A DNA stretch of 49,232 nucleotides, from positions 1 to 49,232 of the IMG/VR virus record IMGVR_UViG_3300037484_000744; one strand, given 5' to 3'. The notes beneath the pieces are model-generated. The model saw only the letters and a program-made list of their open reading frames with translations. It was not told the DNA's origin and searched no databases. The position numbers were made by a program, and so were the translations under genes. Source of the DNA: a virus. Shown here one piece after another: positions 8,850-49,232 of this stretch. Position 1 is the first letter of the stretch; every line of letters begins with the position of its first letter.

Positions 8850-10019
8850 GTGGCCCTCGGCAAGCTAGCGGCGCAGCTCGAACTCCGCAAAGCGATCATG
8901 CGCGGCGCACGCCCCCCGCGCGCGGGCGTGGCCGCGGTGCGCCCGCCGGGCGCGCGCTTGTTCGAACGTGAGTACGAACGCCGCATGCTCGCCATGTGGG
9001 CGACGTTCCGCGAGCACGTGCACCGCGCCGCGCGGCAGGACCTGCGCTCGGACTCCACGGACTCTGACCTTCGGGATATCCTGCGCGTGCTGATGCGCGC
9101 AAGCGGCGTGCTGAATTGGCTAGACGGCAAAGCCGCGCAGACGCTGGACACGCAAGCGCGCTATGTGGAGCGAGTCACGCGCATCCCGCCCGCGGGCGCC
9201 CGCGCGGGAAGGCAAGCAGCAATCGAAGCTTTCCGAGAGGAGAACGCGCGCCTTATAACCCGCATGGGTGACGATCAGATTTCCCAGGTGATGGATCTGC
9301 TGCGCCCCGCGCAAGCAGTTGGCCAGCGGTGGGAGGAGTTGGCGCCGCAGATAGACAAGCGCCTGAACGTGGGTGCGTCGCGCGCCAAACTCATCGCGCG
9401 CGACCAGACGAACAAGTTCAACGGCAGCATGCAGCGCCTCACGCAAGAGGCGAGTGGCATCACCAAGTACCGGTGGAGCACGTCGCGTGATTTCGCGGTG
9501 CGCGGGCGCCCCGGTGGTGAGTACCCCACGGGGGAGGATCATTGGGTTTTAGAAGGGCAGGTCTTCACATGGGCTAACCCACCTTTAATTCCGGGCACAA
9601 GCGAACGCGCGCACCCGGGGCAACGCCCGCAGTGCCGCTGCGTGGCCACACCCGTGGTGGACTTTTTCGAGTCGTCCGGCGCGCCGCAGCGGACCATTTC
9701 CGTACCCGCGCCTACGCCTGTGGTTGAGGAGCCGCGCGTGGCAGAGTTACCTTCGCCCATTCCGCAGGACCTAACCAAGGGCGGCAAGCTACCTCTGCGC
9801 GCCACCAGCTTCGCGCACCTACGCGGGGGCGGCGCAGTCACGCAGGCGCTGCCAGTGTCGATCGCGGTGTACCCAGACGGCACGGTGTTCCCGCGTGACG
9901 GTCGACACCGCATCACGCTTGCGCGAGAGCGTGGCCAAAAGTTCATCGAAGGCGATGTGATTCGCGTGGGCAAACGCGGCGGGGAAAAAGTTGAGAAGAA
10001 AGTACGCATCCCGATATGA
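8850..10019 (+). CDS. MuF/SPP1 gp7-like minor head protein fused to a C-terminal ParB/sulfiredoxin-like domain
   Basis: MuF core ARDQTNKFNG...ITKYRWSTSRDFAVR...HPGQRPQCRCV; C-terminal PVSIAVYPDGTVFPRDGRHRITLARERG resembles the ParB N-terminal domain. Confidence 0.8.
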   Translation: MALGKLAAQLELRKAIMRGARPPRAGVAAVRPPGARLFEREYERRMLAMWATFREHVHRAARQDLRSDSTDSDLRDILRVLMRASGVLNWLDGKAAQTLDTQARYVERVTRIPPAGARAGRQAAIEAFREENARLITRMGDDQISQVMDLLRPAQAVGQRWEELAPQIDKRLNVGASRAKLIARDQTNKFNGSMQRLTQEASGITKYRWSTSRDFAVRGRPGGEYPTGEDHWVLEGQVFTWANPPLIPGTSERAHPGQRPQCRCVATPVVDFFESSGAPQRTISVPAPTPVVEEPRVAELPSPIPQDLTKGGKLPLRATSFAHLRGGGAVTQALPVSIAVYPDGTVFPRDGRHRITLARERGQKFIEGDVIRVGKRGGEKVEKKVRIPI

Positions 10020-29323: not shown

Positions 29324-29511
29324 GCCACGCCCGGCAGCGCCAACTGACGACGGCGCCATCGGCCGTGATGCCCTTGCCACTGGAACCGGTGGCGTGGACA
29401 GCGGCAGGACGCGTGTCGCGTGCGGTGCCCGCAGCGGCGCCAGTACGTGCGGCCACCGGGCAGCAACGCCTCCAACCAACCGCCCTCACACCGCACCGCC
29501 GGTAGCTTCAC
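29320..29511 (-). CDS. Possible 63-aa Cys/His/Trp/Arg-rich protein
   Basis: GTG overlaps the methyltransferase TGA (GTGA); GC3-rich; its stop shares CTAG with the convergent gene. Confidence 0.3.
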   Translation of the reverse strand: MKLPAVRCEGGWLEALLPGGRTYWRRCGHRTRHASCRCPRHRFQWQGHHGRWRRRQLALPGVA

Positions 29512-30389
29512 GCCGCCCACCCCTCGGCGCGGCGCAGGGGCAACGGCGCCAGGCCCACCTGGTTGGCAACGTGCAGCGCGTCCGCCAGGCGCCGGAGGGC
29601 GCGCGCGTGCGTCTTGCGTTCGTGCTTCTTGGGCGGCTTTGCAGTGGCGGCGGATGCCTCCCGCACCCACCGCTCGGCCCACAGTTGGGCCCGCACCCGG
29701 TCCCGGTCGGAAAGGGACGCCACGACGCGCAGGGCGCCCGCCTCAGCCCAGCACTCCTGGAGCTCGACGCAGAGGGCGCCCCTACCCAAAAGCCTCGCAG
29801 CGAGGCCCGTGGTGCAAGCGCCGGCCGTGAGGTCCAGCACCATTTCACCCGGGTCGGAAAACCAGGACACGATGCTGAGCATGAGGTCCAACGGTTTCTC
29901 CGTCGGGTGCTTCTCGGCGCCGCGCAGGGACTTCTCTTCAAAGCTTACAAGAGAGCCGGGGCCGTTCCAGTGCATGCGCCCCGCGCCTGCGTTGTGGCAC
30001 GTGACCACGTCCTCGCTACCGGATGTAGGGCGGTCCCCCGACTTCTGCGGTTGGCTCCACCGAACCCAGGGCACGGTACGGACGTATCGCGCACCGGCGC
30101 CGGTGGCCGCGTCCCGCCACAGGTGTGAACTCTCCTTGTCCGTGAACAGCACGGACCACCGTTGCACGTTGGCCGCGGCGATGGCGATGCGCTCCCTAAG
30201 CAAGTCGTCCAGTGGGTCGAAACCAAAGTCGCGCTTGCGCGTTCCTACGCCACCGGTGCCGGCGCTGGTAGCGTTGCTGTGCACGTGCGGACTGTACGGC
30301 GCATCCGTTGCCAGCAGGTGGAAGTGCTTGTCCAGGTCCAGCGACAGAAAGCGCGAGTCCGCGCAGATGACATCGACGGACGGGGTCAT
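29508..30389 (-). CDS. DNA methyltransferase (N6_N4_Mtase family, beta-class order; N6-adenine or N4-cytosine)
   Basis: Motif IV LLATDAPYS, HPTEKP, and motif I VLDLTAGACTTG; ATG at 30389 is coupled (ATGA) to the upstream gene. Confidence 0.85.
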   Translation of the reverse strand: MTPSVDVICADSRFLSLDLDKHFHLLATDAPYSPHVHSNATSAGTGGVGTRKRDFGFDPLDDLLRERIAIAAANVQRWSVLFTDKESSHLWRDAATGAGARYVRTVPWVRWSQPQKSGDRPTSGSEDVVTCHNAGAGRMHWNGPGSLVSFEEKSLRGAEKHPTEKPLDLMLSIVSWFSDPGEMVLDLTAGACTTGLAARLLGRGALCVELQECWAEAGALRVVASLSDRDRVRAQLWAERWVREASAATAKPPKKHERKTHARALRRLADALHVANQVGLAPLPLRRAEGWAA

Positions 30390-30766
30390 GCCGGCACCGA
30401 ACCCACGCATGCCTCGCACACCCCATCCCCACGTACACGATGGGTGCTGCCGCACAGTTGGCACGCCTGTTTGGCCGGAGGCGGATTGCGCTCCCCGAAC
30501 GCCGCGCGCAACGCACGAAAAACCAAGTCGTGCGCGTAAAGGCGCTGCCGCGGGAAGTTCAGCACCGCGCCGCGGCGCAGCACCTTCTTGACTTGCGCGG
30601 TTGCGATCTCCCGCACGGTGGCACCGAACCCGCCCACCTTGGAAAACAGGTACTCGTAATTACCGCGCGCCGAGTCCCCGCCCACGTTGTGGATGATGCC
30701 CTCGGACAGCACGCGGGCGCGGGTGCTGTCCCCGCCCGGCCACAGTTCGATCTTGATGTAGATCAC
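30386..30766 (-). CDS. Hypothetical protein (126 aa) with a C-terminal zinc ribbon
   Basis: GTG start coupled by GTGA; CQLC...CEAC near the C-terminus; the long upstream extension of ORF 30386..31204 looks non-coding. Confidence 0.5.
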   Translation of the reverse strand: MIYIKIELWPGGDSTRARVLSEGIIHNVGGDSARGNYEYLFSKVGGFGATVREIATAQVKKVLRRGAVLNFPRQRLYAHDLVFRALRAAFGERNPPPAKQACQLCGSTHRVRGDGVCEACVGSVPA

Positions 30767-36995: not shown

Positions 36996-39900
36996 TTACT
37001 TACGGTACCTTTCACCTGTGAACCCATCGCAGTCGATGGGGAAATCGTATGCCCACTGTGGCAGTTCCAGCATGCACTCGTCAAGGGTACGCGCTGCGAT
37101 TTTGCGCAGTGCACGCGGCACCTCGGCACCCGCGCTGTCATGGATGTGGATCACCATCTTGAGCCCGCGCCGTTCCGCACGCACGAGTGCGGCGGCGAGC
37201 AGGCACCGGCACATGGCCTGCACTGCGTTCTCCGTGAGCTTCCCCCCGTAGGTCCAATCGACGCCGCGATGCCCGTCGAACACGATGCCACCGGGGCGCC
37301 GGTTACCTTCCAGTCCCTTTTTGGTGAGAGCCTCATTCGCGAGAGTTGCATCACGCCGCGAGGCGAAACGCATTCCGGGGTACAGGACGAACCTACCACT
37401 CGGCAGAATAAGTGCAACGTCCTTCCCGTCACTTTCGAAACGGAACATGTTGCGCAGGCCACACAAGCCGGTGTGGCCCCCGATGGCGTCCTTAGCCGCG
37501 TTCTCTATGTCGGCCCAAAATTGGACGATCGGCGCGTGCACCTCGCGCCACGTGTCCACCACGGTCTGCCCATCCGTGCCCACGTCCGCCAGCGTCTTCC
37601 CGATCTTCGCTAGTTCCTTGTCTGCGTTGGACTGGAACTTTCGCGCGCCGGCACCGTACCCCAGCATGAGCTCTGCGATCTTGCCGATCTGTCGGCGCTC
37701 GTCCTTGCCAATCTCCTCCACCGGGACACCGAAGATGCGGCTAGCCATGGCCTTGTACGGGTCCGCGCCACTCGCCACCACGGCCAGCGCCGCAGCGTCT
37801 TCCGCTGTCCAGGCAAGCCCGCGCGCTTCGACCCCCTTGAAGTCGCGCTCAACGAACACGCACCCTGGCTCCGCATACAGGCACGCGCGCAGCAACATGG
37901 GCATCTCGAGCGGGTGCACGTGCGCGCCCGCAATCACGTCACGCACACGGCGCCGAATGTCCTTGTCGGTCCACTTCTCAAAAATGTCGTCAGGGCGTGT
38001 GAGGTTGTGCGGCTGCAACCCAACGCCTGCCCACCTACCGGTATTGTGCGTTACAATATACCCTCGAGTGATGTACAAATGGTCACTAGCCTCGACTTCG
38101 ATGCACGTCGATTCCTCGACCCCATCTTTTTCGACGCTCACAACCGCACGCCACGGAGCGCGCCTAGTTCCCGTCCAACGTCGAGCCTTTCTCTCGAGAC
38201 CAAAGGGACACACATCAACGGGTATGTGACAGTTTACCGAGTATATTACGCCGTCACCGAGGCGTTCAACGTATGCGCGCGCCGTGCCACCGATAGACTG
38301 AACGAGCTCAATCACTGCGTCTCGCAAGTGTGGCGAACACGTCGCGTACTTTACGACTCCCGGGCTCTTTGCGGAACCATCCGTATCAAAAAGCCCACGC
38401 AAAAGCTCAACACGCGCTGCGAAGGACGCCAAACCATACTCTGGCGGAATGAACTTCGTGAACGAGTCGTGCCCCCAAAGTCCAAGGCCTTCGAGTGCTA
38501 CACGTAAAGGGTTACGCCGCCTAGGCGGTAGCGGCTCGCCTCTGCGAACAAGTGCGTAGTAGCAACCCACGCACAAGCCTCGAACGGCTCGGCCGCCATG
38601 CCCGCACGAAGTGGCGTTAGCTGTACTGATAACGAATCGGTAGTGAAAAGCCTTCTTTCCGGGTACAGGCCGCACGACCGCGCGCACCCCGTTCAACTGG
38701 AATCTTGCTGCGATCTCGGGGTCGCCTGACGTGAAACGCGGGCAGTCACCCACCATACAACCGTCACCAAGGAGTGCCCCTAGCGTGTACGGGTCAATTG
38801 GCAGTACGTCGGGCCGTTCCGTTCGGTCGGCCACAAACGGAACGGTGTACCGGTGCCTTTTGCCGTACGACAAATCCCCCAGGTCCCTAAGGCGTATTAC
38901 ACGTGGCTTACCGCACGCACGCACACTCCACAAGTGCTCTGCGTCACACCTAGTCCACGAACCATCAGAGAATGTAACGCGGTATACCTGTCGCAACCCC
39001 TGCGGGTAAGTTCCTGCGACACGCGTCGGTCCTGTACGGCCTTGAATGACGTCACCCACTCGCAACTCGCCCATGGCAACCCACCCCAATGGCGTTCGAA
39101 CGGGCTCGGAGTTGGGCTGCGCGTGCGCGGCCCAGTACTTGAACATGTCCCGCAACCGGCCGTCGGGGGACACGCGCGCGATGCCGGCTTCAAGCTTTCC
39201 TCTTACGATGCTGGCTAGCGCCGTCCGCGCCTGCACCAACTCCCGCACGGCGCGCTTGGGGTGGTGCTCGTACTGCTCCACCTCGTCCGCGGTGGCGCTG
39301 TGGCAGTCGGTGGCGCCGCTCTCCCGCATCCACTTGCAGAACGTGGCGGCGTGTCGGATGCCGGACACGAACAGGCGCTCCGTCGCGAACTTGACGATCG
39401 CGGGGTTGGGCACCTTGCCGTCCGGCGCGTGCTGCTTCTGCAGCCGGCGCATGGTGTTGGTGTCGGGGTTAGTGATGCGCGCGCCAAGGTGCCGCAACCA
39501 CTCCACCGTTTCGCGCTTGTCCAGCACCCGCGGGTCCACGCCCACACCCTCGGCGCCGTGCCGCGCGTCCTCACGCAGCAGGGCCTTAGCAAGCGCCACG
39601 TCGAAGCAGATCCCGCGATCGTTGATCAGCCGGTCCACTTCCTCCGCATCGGTCTCCACGTCCAGGAAGTCCTCCAGGAACGGCCAGAGCCCGACCGTGC
39701 CGGTCAAGTCGTCTCGACAATACGCCATTACGCGGCGCAGCACCTCCGGGGTGATTAGTGGCAGCTGCCCCAGGCGCGCCTTGGCCTTGCTCGGCTGACT
39801 CAGACGCAGCGTGAAGGCGTTGCCCTCCTTGTCCTTCCTGCGCCCGAGCAGCCGCGTCAGAAGCTTGTCCAGCGAACCTGGGTACCCCGCGCGCGCGGCG

Positions 39901-40199
39901 AGGTGCATGGTGTCGATGTAGCGCCGCGGCTCCGGCCAGCCGAGCCGGCGCCACGCATGCCGATCGAACGTCATCATGTTGTGCGCGGCCACAGCGTCCG
40001 GCCGCGTGCGCCCGTAAGGGCACCGGTCCCCCGGTGCCCACTCCACGATCTCGCCTTCCACCTGCAGCACCGCGCAGATGACTTCGGCAGTGGGATGTTC
40101 CCAGTAGGCGCGCCCCCCGATCTTTTTCAGGTCACACTGCGACTTGTCCGCGCGGGACTCGAAGTCGACGAAATCGGGGGTGCGCGCCGTGCCGGGCAT
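36996..40199 (-). CDS. Family A DNA polymerase with a 3'-5' exonuclease domain, interrupted by an intein
   Basis: Exo I FVDFES; pre-motif ...KYWAAHA[intein]TGRWAGVGLQPHNL; motif A VERDFKGVEARGLAW; motif B RRQIGKIAELMLGYGAG; motif C IHIHDS. Confidence 0.9.
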   Translation of the reverse strand: MPGTARTPDFVDFESRADKSQCDLKKIGGRAYWEHPTAEVICAVLQVEGEIVEWAPGDRCPYGRTRPDAVAAHNMMTFDRHAWRRLGWPEPRRYIDTMHLAARAGYPGSLDKLLTRLLGRRKDKEGNAFTLRLSQPSKAKARLGQLPLITPEVLRRVMAYCRDDLTGTVGLWPFLEDFLDVETDAEEVDRLINDRGICFDVALAKALLREDARHGAEGVGVDPRVLDKRETVEWLRHLGARITNPDTNTMRRLQKQHAPDGKVPNPAIVKFATERLFVSGIRHAATFCKWMRESGATDCHSATADEVEQYEHHPKRAVRELVQARTALASIVRGKLEAGIARVSPDGRLRDMFKYWAAHAQPNSEPVRTPLGWVAMGELRVGDVIQGRTGPTRVAGTYPQGLRQVYRVTFSDGSWTRCDAEHLWSVRACGKPRVIRLRDLGDLSYGKRHRYTVPFVADRTERPDVLPIDPYTLGALLGDGCMVGDCPRFTSGDPEIAARFQLNGVRAVVRPVPGKKAFHYRFVISTANATSCGHGGRAVRGLCVGCYYALVRRGEPLPPRRRNPLRVALEGLGLWGHDSFTKFIPPEYGLASFAARVELLRGLFDTDGSAKSPGVVKYATCSPHLRDAVIELVQSIGGTARAYVERLGDGVIYSVNCHIPVDVCPFGLERKARRWTGTRRAPWRAVVSVEKDGVEESTCIEVEASDHLYITRGYIVTHNTGRWAGVGLQPHNLTRPDDIFEKWTDKDIRRRVRDVIAGAHVHPLEMPMLLRACLYAEPGCVFVERDFKGVEARGLAWTAEDAAALAVVASGADPYKAMASRIFGVPVEEIGKDERRQIGKIAELMLGYGAGARKFQSNADKELAKIGKTLADVGTDGQTVVDTWREVHAPIVQFWADIENAAKDAIGGHTGLCGLRNMFRFESDGKDVALILPSGRFVLYPGMRFASRRDATLANEALTKKGLEGNRRPGGIVFDGHRGVDWTYGGKLTENAVQAMCRCLLAAALVRAERRGLKMVIHIHDSAGAEVPRALRKIAARTLDECMLELPQWAYDFPIDCDGFTGERYRK
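38043..39122 (-). mobile_element. Intein (about 359 aa) with a LAGLIDADG homing-endonuclease domain; class-3-like signature
   Basis: Ends ...YIVTHN followed by T of TGRW; LGALLGDGC and LLRGLFDTDGS are LAGLIDADG blocks. No Cys/Ser at the N-terminal junction (AHA/QPNSEP). G+C and codon usage are visibly lower than in the flanking extein. The N-terminal boundary is uncertain by 1-2 codons. Confidence 0.8.
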
Positions 40200-49105: not shown

Positions 49106-49232
49106 CCCTCCCTAACCCTGCACTTTGCCCAATGATTACCAACACCTACCAAGGCCCACATGCACAACCGTTTGGTGGTGCATTCGTTCATGCGCAACCG
49201 TTTGGTTGCATATGTTCAGTGCCTGTGTTGCA
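49106..49232. repeat. Terminal direct repeat, right copy (identical to 1..127)
   Basis: Exact match to 1..127; unique genome length is therefore 49105 bp. Confidence 0.95.

Follow-up and report, generated by a model that had tools for sequence, protein, structure and literature searches.

A probable class 3 intein at the TGR motif of a phage family A DNA polymerase

The 49,232-nucleotide stretch analysed in this work (IMG/VR record IMGVR_UViG_3300037484_000744, positions 1 to 49,232, hereafter the window) encodes a DNA polymerase whose reading frame is interrupted by a long insert that begins with neither Cys, Ser nor Thr. This raises the question of whether the insert is an intein, and of which class. 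Our analysis indicates that it is very probably a full-length class 3 intein, which combines a HINT splicing domain with a LAGLIDADG domain and lies between His359 and Thr720 of a conserved ...YxGAH/TGRW... motif (the slash marks the junction). The host protein is a family A DNA polymerase encoded by a tailed phage of about 49 kb, and splicing is predicted by homology.

The interrupted polymerase gene and the limits of the insert

The precursor ORF (36996-40199 on the minus strand, like all features described below) comprises 1067 amino acids (AA) plus a stop codon, and was identified as a family A DNA polymerase with a 3'-5' exonuclease domain from the ORF listing, Pfam, an alignment of homologues and a profile match with Taq and Klenow polymerases. 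The Pfam match to DNA_pol_A is weak (E 2e-14), so that the ORF could otherwise be taken for an oversized polymerase. No match to the polymerase gene was found by megablast in 50,697 phage records, and the phage is without a close cultured relative.

A preliminary description of this DNA proposed that the polymerase is split by a LAGLIDADG intein. All the strings that it quoted lie where it placed them (KYWAAHA at AA 354–360, AEHLW at 420–424, LGALLGDGC at 473–481, LLRGLFDTDGS at 599–609, STCIEVE at 697–703, GYIVTHN at 713–719 and TGRWAGVG at 720–727), and 38043-39122 is exactly A360-N719. The proposal itself is borne out, as the insert is in frame, lies within a conserved motif and is missing from more than 20 homologues. 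The junctions, H359/A360 and N719/T720, were fixed by aligning the protein with 12 homologues that lack the intein and three orthologues that carry it. The 12 aligned intein-less homologues and four more read GAH/TGRW, with a few variants reading GAH/PWRW or GAH/TWRW; beyond the 12, nine IMG/VR homologues out of nine are also intein-less. The intein (38043-39122, AQPNSEPV...GYIVTHN), which is supported by alignment, homology and an AlphaFold2 model, is therefore 360 AA long and not about 359 as first estimated; its first residue, left between Ala and Gln, is Ala, since the alignment reads GAH/AQP... and ...THN/TGRW. A misplaced junction, concealing an ordinary class 1 intein with a Cys, Ser or Thr start, has a practically negligible probability: nothing was found in its favour beyond that early hesitation between Ala and Gln, the alignment puts Ala360 and no Cys, Ser or Thr at the true N-terminal junction, no other register recovers the GAHTGRW consensus of the intein-less homologues, and an intein starting at the nearest downstream Ser or Thr (S364, T368) would leave surplus residues behind in the invariant motif. 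Moreover, AQP comes directly after a Walker A Lys or the equivalent residue in 72 of the 74 relatives with a firm start.

On either side of this class 3 candidate, the exteins have the features of a polymerase. The N-extein (AA 1–359, 39123-40199), whose limit comes from the homologue alignment, ends in ...FKYWAAH with His at -1, and the C-extein (AA 720–1067, 36999-38042) carries motif A (DFKGVEAR), motif B (RRQIGKIAELMLGYG) and motif C (IHIHDS), as located by alignment to Klenow and Taq. It starts with TGRWAGVG (38019-38042), in which homologue and Taq alignments designate Thr720 as the predicted +1 nucleophile and Arg722 as the Arg of the TGR motif. Joining the exteins gives KYWAAHTGRWAG, which restores the conserved motif. 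The insertion was initially described as lying directly before the invariant TGR motif, and this holds: Arg722 is invariant in the alignment of 12 intein-less and three intein-bearing homologues, and in the profile alignment the Taq segment 'ATA TGRLS' pairs with 'gah tgRws', which equates the TGR Arg with Taq R573 (presumably Klenow R668) and places the insertion point two residues ahead of it. Since the insertion adjoins this catalytically essential Arg, it is reasonable to expect that polymerase activity would depend on intein splicing. The homologue and Klenow alignments show intact exonuclease motifs, as well as intact motifs A and B of the polymerase; motif C is unusual, with HDS in place of the HDE of 15 out of 15 aligned homologues, and full activity of the spliced HDS-motif polymerase is not certain.

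Splicing blocks and the predicted splicing route

The insert has the general attributes of an intein, with exteins that rebuild a motif, a HINT fold and a His-Asn/Thr C-terminal junction. Class 3 inteins are defined by a Trp, Cys and Thr (W-C-T) at positions B:12, F:4 and G:5 (Tori et al. 2010, PMC2807308), and the residue at +1 is Ser or Thr, rarely Cys (PMC2807308). Here block A (AQPNSEPVRTPLGW, 39081-39122) starts with Ala as intein residue 1, and its position 7 pairs with position 7 of the MchDnaB1 intein chain 6rix. Block B (WTRCDAEHLWSV, 38922-38957) contains His422 (H63, B:10; 38934-38936) and Trp424 (W65, B:12; 38928-38930). In block F (ESTCIEVEASDHLYIT, 38067-38114), Cys699 (C340, F:4; 38103-38105) is expected to start splicing as the first nucleophile and to form the branch point, and block G (GYIVTHN, 38043-38063) provides Thr717 (G:5), His718 (G:6) and Asn719 (G:7). 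Each of the 106 relatives has the His and Trp of block B, Cys at F:4, Thr at G:5 and the terminal Asn; other positions are less strict (Ala1 in 86, His at G:6 in 104 and Thr+1 in 100 of the 106). The NCBIfam intein_Cterm model scores 15.3 bits, just under its 15.6-bit cut-off.

The W-C-T signature, already recognized in the preliminary description, matches W67, C320 and T339 in the mycobacteriophage Bethlehem intein (MP-Be) position by position, so that all sequence hallmarks of class 3 are found together: a non-nucleophile residue 1, Trp at B:12, Cys at F:4, Thr at G:5 and Thr at +1. In MP-Be, H65, W67, C320, I321 and F330 are needed for splicing (PMC2807308). Class 3 is described as monophyletic, and common descent is indicated by the similarity to MP-Be (E 2e-21) and to MchDnaB1 (E 5e-10). 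The W-C-T triplet is in itself no guarantee of activity, because its grafting onto a class 1 intein did not create a working class 3 intein (PMC7664689). The homology to class 3 inteins spans the whole domain, beyond the triplet.

By analogy with the Bethlehem, D. radiodurans Snf2 and mycobacterial DnaB1 inteins, we infer that the insert splices, and does so by the Cys-F:4 route. The thiol of Cys699, positioned and activated by His422 and Trp424 of block B and by Thr717 of block G, would attack the His359–Ala360 bond to form a block F branched thioester; transfer of the N-extein onto the Thr720 hydroxyl would next yield the usual branched ester of block G; cyclization of Asn719, helped by His718, would free the intein, and an O-to-N acyl shift would produce ...KYWAAH-TGRWAG..., an intact polymerase. 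Splicing might conceivably follow another route, for instance a class 2-like attack of Thr+1 on the N-terminal junction, with the F:4 Cys being structural or activating. Ala1 is indeed common to the class 2 KlbA inteins (PMC4031507), and in a model of MP-Be Thr+1 is about as near the scissile bond as Cys320 (PMC2807308). However, class 2 inteins combine Cys+1, Asp at F:4 and Ser at G:6, where this intein has Thr+1, Cys and His; its relatives include inteins with a demonstrated block F branched intermediate, and direct attack of a hydroxyl on an amide is chemically unfavourable, which makes such a route highly improbable compared with initiation by Cys699.

Endonuclease domain, composition and selection

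The AlphaFold2 model of the intein (pLDDT 91.4, pTM 0.89) has PI-SceI as its best whole-model Foldseek match (TMq 0.70, E 6e-18). Over the splicing domain, class 3 DnaB1 inteins match with an rmsd of 2.6–2.8 A, and the DnaB1, gp41-1 and Prp8 inteins together range from 2.2 to 2.8 A. The endonuclease part matches PI-SceI, PI-PfuI and I-DmoI and has the paired alpha-beta-beta-alpha-beta-beta-alpha arrangement of PI-SceI and I-DmoI. According to this model, the intein is a HINT splicing domain with a LAGLIDADG endonuclease, in the PI-SceI architecture. The splicing blocks and the two LAGLIDADG blocks that had been read from the letters are thus confirmed by the PI-SceI-like fold, the class 3 DnaB1 match and Pfam LAGLIDADG_3. 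The first LAGLIDADG motif (block C, LGALLGDGC, 38757-38783) contains the predicted catalytic Asp479, with the Gly and Asp invariant in an alignment of 59 inteins; the second (block E, LLRGLFDTDGS, 38373-38405; Pfam LAGLIDADG_3, E 3e-5) contains Asp607 within a G-L-x-D-x-D-G pattern invariant in the same 59. In each motif the catalytic Asp is intact and followed by Gly, and the homing endonuclease is predicted to be active. In a co-infection, the freed intein would then cut an intein-less polymerase allele near TACTACGGCGCGCAC/ACSGGSCGNTGG, a candidate target that is conserved in intein-less alleles, and the cut allele would gain a copy of the intein by recombinational repair. The endonuclease domain also carries an insert of about 30 AA, modelled with somewhat lower confidence (pLDDT about 80–88), which contains a Cys/His cluster, CGH-x8-C-x2-C (C532, H534, C543, C546; 38562-38606), found only in P0001 and P0002 among the 106 inteins.

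The composition of the intein is foreign to the genome. Its G+C content is 0.582, against 0.682 and 0.634 for the exteins, in keeping with the lower value announced in the preliminary description, and its GC3 is 0.589, against 0.886 and 0.765. This GC3 lies 5 SD below that of 200-codon windows of 30 other genes of the genome (z = -5; mean 0.794, minimum 0.685), and GC3 is lower in the intein than in the exteins in four alleles out of four. The lack of AAGCTT sites in the intein, which had been listed along with its composition, is real but carries no weight as a sign of foreignness, since the genome-wide density predicts only 0.86 sites and the probability of finding none is 0.43.

Between alleles, the intein is more conserved than its host protein (77%, 60% and 55% protein identity for the intein compared with 51%, 39% and 41% for the exteins), and its endonuclease domain is as well conserved as the splicing domains. 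Recent homing was considered as the cause of this difference and rejected, as synonymous sites are saturated (dS 1.0–3.4 where computable). In the comparison of the window with allele L001, dN is 0.18 for the intein and 0.50–0.54 for the exteins, about one third. As judged from these substitutions, the higher identity of the intein shows purifying selection, not recency. These values also bear on the idea that the intein is splicing-dead or decaying, frozen like the Arthrobacter Arth_1007 pseudo-intein, with a polymerase that is non-functional or replaced by the host enzyme. The HDS version of motif C might mean that the host gene is under relaxed constraint, and a non-splicing class 3-like pseudogene with W-D-T is documented (PMC3196547). 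Nevertheless, the low dN of the intein, the integrity of all catalytic residues, which are those conserved throughout the 106 relatives, the intact exonuclease and polymerase (A and B) motifs, and the uninterrupted frame of more than 330 codons kept by each of the four orthologous alleles all argue against loss of splicing; in addition, a Pfam scan of 10 large ORFs revealed no second polymerase and no second intein copy was found within the window. A dead intein is consequently very unlikely.

Insertion site and comparison with known inteins

Homologues of the intein are encoded in 648 phage records, 563 of which cover at least 80% of it. Among the 74 relatives with a firm start, the residue at -1 is the Walker A Lys of ATPases in 62 (about 84%) and an Arg of PhoH in six, whereas it is His here, a difference that could bear on how the N-terminal junction is activated. 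A class 3 intein at GAH/TGR was found in only four metagenomic phage polymerases, the window included. No DNA polymerase host appears among the best 40 of the 648 phage records matched in one search or the best 30 of 567 in another; the latter, a tblastn search whose query spanned the junction (42 AA of N-extein joined to the start of the intein), gave helicase and PhoH inteins and no annotated polymerase among these best 30. No class 3 intein in a DNA polymerase turned up in the other sources searched. Old InBase 'dpol' entries come from the Salmonella phages SETP5 and SETP12. The new element is thus the insertion site and the host protein, a family A DNA polymerase, while the type of intein is ordinary and well known.

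One could imagine that this lineage left the Walker A G-K/T niche of NTPases for the GAH/TGR site of a polymerase, where it would work with His instead of Lys at -1, and also that its splicing gates the maturation of the phage replicase in response to thiols, redox state or metals, because the predicted initiating nucleophile is an internal Cys and the allele has gained a Cys/His cluster. Taken as a whole, this scenario is speculative and, in our estimation, rather unlikely. Its gate is modelled on the oxidative toggle reported for the M. smegmatis DnaBi1 intein. The redox pair of that intein, Cys48-Cys118, is not itself transferable, as the position of Cys48, the redox disulfide partner (PMC6195587), is occupied by Val in the window intein.

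The locus provides a case from nature of an intein that changed its host protein, almost all family members residing at ATPase Walker A sites, and a new, well-documented insertion site in a family A DNA polymerase, near the Arg aligned with Taq R573. The four alleles (50–77% identity), with their His(-1)/Thr(+1) junctions, could be used to probe how far Cys-F:4 chemistry tolerates changes in extein context, and may supply new orthogonal splicing parts. This polymerase family, which is interrupted independently by class 3 inteins at TGR and by class 1 inteins in motif B, is also convenient for following homing dynamics in uncultured phages. The working picture of class 3 inteins, an established and phage-centred family, is unchanged.

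The closest reference is MP-Be, the founding class 3 intein (Tori et al. 2010, PMC2807308), which is homologous over its full length (29% identity, E 2e-21) and has splicing and LAGLIDADG domains. It was properly cited as the class 3 reference in the preliminary description, but its name, the Bethlehem DnaB intein, is misleading, a matter of nomenclature and no more: it is encoded in the terminase large subunit, at AA 141–481 of TerL gp10, and gp61, considered as an alternative host, was discarded as it is only 273 AA long. Both inteins lack an N-terminal nucleophile, carry the block B His and Trp and a Cys at F:4, and end in Thr-His-Asn followed by Thr+1; H63, W65, C340, I341, E344, H348, Y350, T358, H359 and N360 of the window intein pair with H65, W67, C320, I321, D324, H328, F330, T339, H340 and N341 of MP-Be. 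The F:4 Cys pairs with C320 of MP-Be (VKCIGID) and with the active-site Cys of MchDnaB1 and MsmDnaB1 (vrCVEVD), and the block B His and Trp also pair with H65 and W67 of MchDnaB1. MP-Be and the window intein are similar in length (341 AA for MP-Be and 360 here) and differ in their first and preceding residues (Pro1 and Gln-1 in MP-Be, Ala1 and His-1 here), in their host (a terminase ATPase versus a DNA polymerase) and in the Cys/His-containing insert of the endonuclease domain, which MP-Be lacks. K319 of MP-Be, replaced by Thr in the window intein, gives poor splicing at 30 C when mutated to Ala (PMC2807308).

The mycobacterial DnaB1 mini-inteins (M. smegmatis, 6BS8; M. chimaera, 6RIX/6RIY) are the best sequence matches in the PDB (E 5e-10 to 2e-9, aligned from position 7), with 33% identity and an rmsd of 2.6 A over the splicing domain. 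They share Ala1, the Cys-His-Thr triad and the Trp (PMC7664689) but, unlike the window intein, they lack an endonuclease and lie after the Walker A Lys of DnaB. Phage class 3 inteins of helicases, terminases and PhoH proteins (Mycobacterium phage Alice helicase, PhiPA3 SNF2 helicase, Klebsiella phage N1M2 terminase) reach 33–36% identity over 100% of the length and have the same AQP...THN/T termini, in hosts that are NTPases. PI-SceI, the S. cerevisiae VMA1 intein, has the same association of HINT and LAGLIDADG domains, but it is only 16% identical, resides in a eukaryotic host and is a class 1 intein (Cys1, Asp at F:4, Cys+1). Class 2 KlbA inteins also have Ala1 and skip the first acyl shift; they are confined to archaeal KlbA orthologues, and their Cys+1, Asp at F:4 and Ser at G:6 (PMC4031507) are all absent from the window intein.

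Finally, other inteins occur in polymerases of this family. The APSE-1 P45 polymerase is also a family A phage enzyme, in which the sole annotated endonuclease is an HNH ORF, P46, overlapping the C-terminal part of P45; the polymerase was tried as a relative of the window intein and set aside, showing no similarity (E 1.7). Several homologues of the window polymerase (P0009, P0121, P0139 and others) carry class 1 inteins in motif B, with a Cys start and an HN/C end at GK(I/V)AELA/C...HN/CGYG, and have an uninterrupted GAH-TGRW. Like the predicted class 3 intein described here, the APSE-1 P45 intein and the motif B inteins interrupt a conserved motif of the same enzyme family.

Junctions of the intein and its place in the polymerase

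The intein lies within a family A DNA polymerase gene (36996–40199, minus strand; 1067 aa; Pfam E 2e-14), which shows a LAGLIDADG_3 segment in mid-ORF. Among 5.8 billion proteins searched, the homologues fall into two groups: three long polymerases (P0002–P0004), 40–56% identical to the window protein over the whole length, and many proteins of 620–750 aa. In a multiple alignment, twelve of the short homologues run uninterrupted through ...DGRLRD..RYYGAH-TGRWSG..., and the window protein and P0002–P0004 carry an insert between the His and the Thr, which starts with AQP(N/L)SEPV and ends with THN in all four. Only one register restores the GAH-TGRW consensus, so that intein residue 1 is Ala360, with His359 at −1 and Thr720 at +1. 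The preliminary description had proposed a start without Cys, Ser or Thr, and the junction alignment bears this out; the strings that it quoted are all present at their residue numbers, and 38043–39122 (minus strand) is exactly A360–N719, 360 residues. Nine more IMG/VR homologues (36–45% identity) have genes of about 1.5–2.2 kb, and the four that were read at the site show GAH/TGRW (slashes mark insertion points). When 1.84 billion cluster representatives were scanned exhaustively with HMMER, only P0002–P0004 matched extein and intein together, so that the polymerase-intein allele is rare and sporadic.

With a profile built from 18 intein-less homologues, 'ygah-tgRwsgkglQlqNlp' falls on 'ATA-TGRLSSSDPNLQNIP' of Klentaq, which makes the Arg two residues past the insertion point Taq R573 (chain numbering). 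We take this residue to be the equivalent of Klenow R668, a minor-groove contact at the primer terminus. Polymerase motifs A and B are preserved in the window protein, as are its exonuclease motifs. A 40-kDa domain two residues before the R573 equivalent should be incompatible with catalysis, which makes the earlier reasoning that an active polymerase would require splicing sound. Motif C reads IHIHDSAGAEV, with Ser1022 (37134–37136) in place of the Glu of the near-universal H-D-E, and the residues after HDS are also atypical; the motif is HDE in 15 of 15 aligned homologues, and no alternative frame restores HDE at this position of the window. The HDS motif suggests caution about the host polymerase gene.

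Selection, composition and phage genome

The window intein is 77%, 60% and 55% identical to those of P0002, P0003 and P0004, compared with 51%, 39% and 41% for the exteins, and the endonuclease domain is conserved as well as the splicing domains. In the closest pair, dN is 0.18 for the intein versus 0.50–0.54 for the exteins (Nei-Gojobori). Synonymous sites are saturated between alleles; the pattern shows that the intein protein is under purifying selection and does not speak for recent transfer of the intein between these particular phages. Reciprocal best hits link the four polymerase inteins, which points to a single colonisation of the GAH/TGR site. Intein-less alleles show good conservation of the DNA around the site, TACTACGGCGCGCAC/ACSGGSCGNTGG, and so offer potential homing targets. 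The composition of the intein is foreign: the lower G+C content noticed earlier holds, with a GC3 of 0.589 versus 0.886 and 0.765 in the exteins, 5 SD below the other genes of the genome. P0002–P0004 likewise have a lower GC3 in the intein than in the exteins, by a smaller gap. AAGCTT is indeed missing from the intein, as had been remarked, but this absence has no value as evidence (P = 0.43).

The window, 49,232 bp with 65% G+C, looks like a complete tailed-phage genome. It encodes a terminase, a portal, a major capsid protein, a tape-measure protein, an N6/N4 DNA methyltransferase (29508–30464, minus strand), a ResIII-type helicase and a DUF5906 primase-like protein. Bases 1–127 and 49106–49232 are identical (127-bp end overlap; unique length 49,105 bp), so that the contig looks circularly assembled, or the genome terminally redundant or permuted. 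AAGCTT is by far its most over-represented palindromic hexamer, with 39 sites versus 4.8 expected from base composition (8.1-fold). These sites (for example at 2245, 7078, 7089, 36937, 39192 and 49024) are fairly evenly spread and mostly intragenic, and no extended consensus was found around the 39 of them. Among related phage loci, AAGCTT is not enriched in L001 (1.1-fold) and L004 (0.8-fold) and mildly so in L005 (2.9-fold). We found no explanation for its over-representation in the window, from which GACGTC is almost missing (1 site versus 16.8 expected). In L001, the region just upstream of the polymerase (9376–10004) holds a 70-aa gene with a weak Pfam match to the Acb2/Tad1 hairpin anti-defence family; a NUDIX hydrolase gene comes next, immediately before the polymerase gene that bears the intein.

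Structure of the intein and insertion sites of its relatives

AlphaFold2, run on the intein plus 10 residues of extein per side with a 59-sequence alignment as input, gave a confident model (pLDDT 91.4, pTM 0.89). In a Foldseek search of the PDB, the whole model matched PI-SceI best (TMq 0.70, E 6e-18), its middle domain matched LAGLIDADG enzymes of the I-DmoI type, and its splicing domain matched the class 3 DnaB1 inteins (33% identity, rmsd 2.6–2.8 Å). The catalytic Asp-Gly is kept in both LAGLIDADG motifs (D479, D607) and is invariant across the alignment. The window and P0002 inteins have about 30 extra residues in the endonuclease domain, among them a CGH-x8-C-x2-C cluster (38562–38606; aa 532–546, intein residues 173–187) that is absent from the other 104 of 106 related inteins extracted from the protein matches. 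Model confidence is somewhat lower at the cluster, whose spacing resembles that of a small zinc-binding element and might represent one.

Phages are rich in class 3 inteins: tblastn detected homologues in 648 phage records (33–36% identity), with at least 80% of the intein covered in 563 of them. The hosts among the matches listed are helicases, terminases and PhoH proteins, and none of the top matches listed from this collection places the intein in a polymerase; an earlier listing of a class 3 intein in a polymerase may exist. According to a 2025 actinobacteriophage survey, class 3 inteins occupy no more than four host proteins, among which there is no family A polymerase (bioRxiv 10.1101/2025.01.02.630785). 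Among 74 relatives with a firm start, insertion is after the Walker A Lys (G-K/T) in 62, after PhoH RGR in 6, in an SNF2-type protein in 2, and at GAH/TGRW only in the 4 polymerases. Within the 106-intein family (P0022–P0120), insertion is overwhelmingly after the Walker A Lys, in hosts that include DnaB, terminases, SNF2/ResIII helicases and further ATPases; PhoH RGR/T forms a smaller set of sites, and several proteins, such as P0022 and P0025, hold two or three intein copies.

Inteins elsewhere in this enzyme family are different. The window intein has no similarity to the APSE-1 polymerase P45 (E 1.7), whose C-terminal part is overlapped by an ORF annotated as an HNH endonuclease. A class 1 intein is present in at least seven clusters of homologous polymerases (P0009, P0121, P0139, P0144, P0146, P0154, P0159) (Cys1...HN/Cys+1), in motif B at about window aa 845, near 37665 (GK(I/V)AELA/C(L/F)...(V/I)VHN/CGYG). 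Motif B is a second intein site of the same polymerase family, commoner than the TGR site, which reads uninterrupted GAH-TGRW in carriers P0009, P0121 and P0139.

The class 3 signature and the Bethlehem intein

Class 3 inteins have no nucleophile at position 1, Trp-Cys-Thr at B:12, F:4 and G:5, and almost always Ser or Thr at +1 (Tori et al., 2010, PMC2807308; PMC5050341; PMC4031507). The window intein has all of these features: Ala1, His422-Leu-Trp424, Cys699 in STCIEVE, Thr717-His718-Asn719 and Thr720. Class 2 (KlbA) inteins are characterised by Cys at +1, Asp at F:4 and Ser at G:6 (PMC4031507), and membership of that class was rejected on all three positions. All 106 related inteins have His and Trp in block B, Cys at F:4, Thr at G:5 and a terminal Asn; the G:6 His occurs in 104 of them, Thr+1 in 100 and Ala1 in 86. 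Among proteins of solved structure, those closest in sequence are class 3 DnaB1 inteins from M. chimaera and M. smegmatis (6RIX, 6RIY, 6BS8; E ~1e-9). Their alignment with the window intein keeps register from residue 7 on and also pairs the Cys of block F and the THN at the end. The signature reflects homology and did not arise by chance. The preliminary description is confirmed in what it observed, and its class 3 W-C-T interpretation is supported both by these residues and by homology to established class 3 inteins. The splicing mechanism is expected to be standard class 3; splicing itself, a Cys699 branch intermediate and endonuclease activity are predicted. The intein is of a known kind; its host protein and its insertion site are new.

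The founding class 3 intein, the Mycobacterium phage Bethlehem 'DnaB' intein, is located in the terminase large subunit gp10 (locus L009, 7260–9971; aa 141–481); the DnaB-like gp61 (locus L006) was rejected as its home, being only 273 aa long and intein-free. Its junction has Gln at −1 and Pro at 1. It aligns with the window intein over the full length (BLASTP, 29% identity, E 2e-21), and H65, W67, C320, I321, D324, H328, F330 and T339-H-N341 correspond to H63, W65, C340, I341, E344, H348, Y350 and T358-H-N360 (intein numbering). Among the positions important in the 2010 mutagenesis, the sole difference is K319, which is Thr in the window intein.
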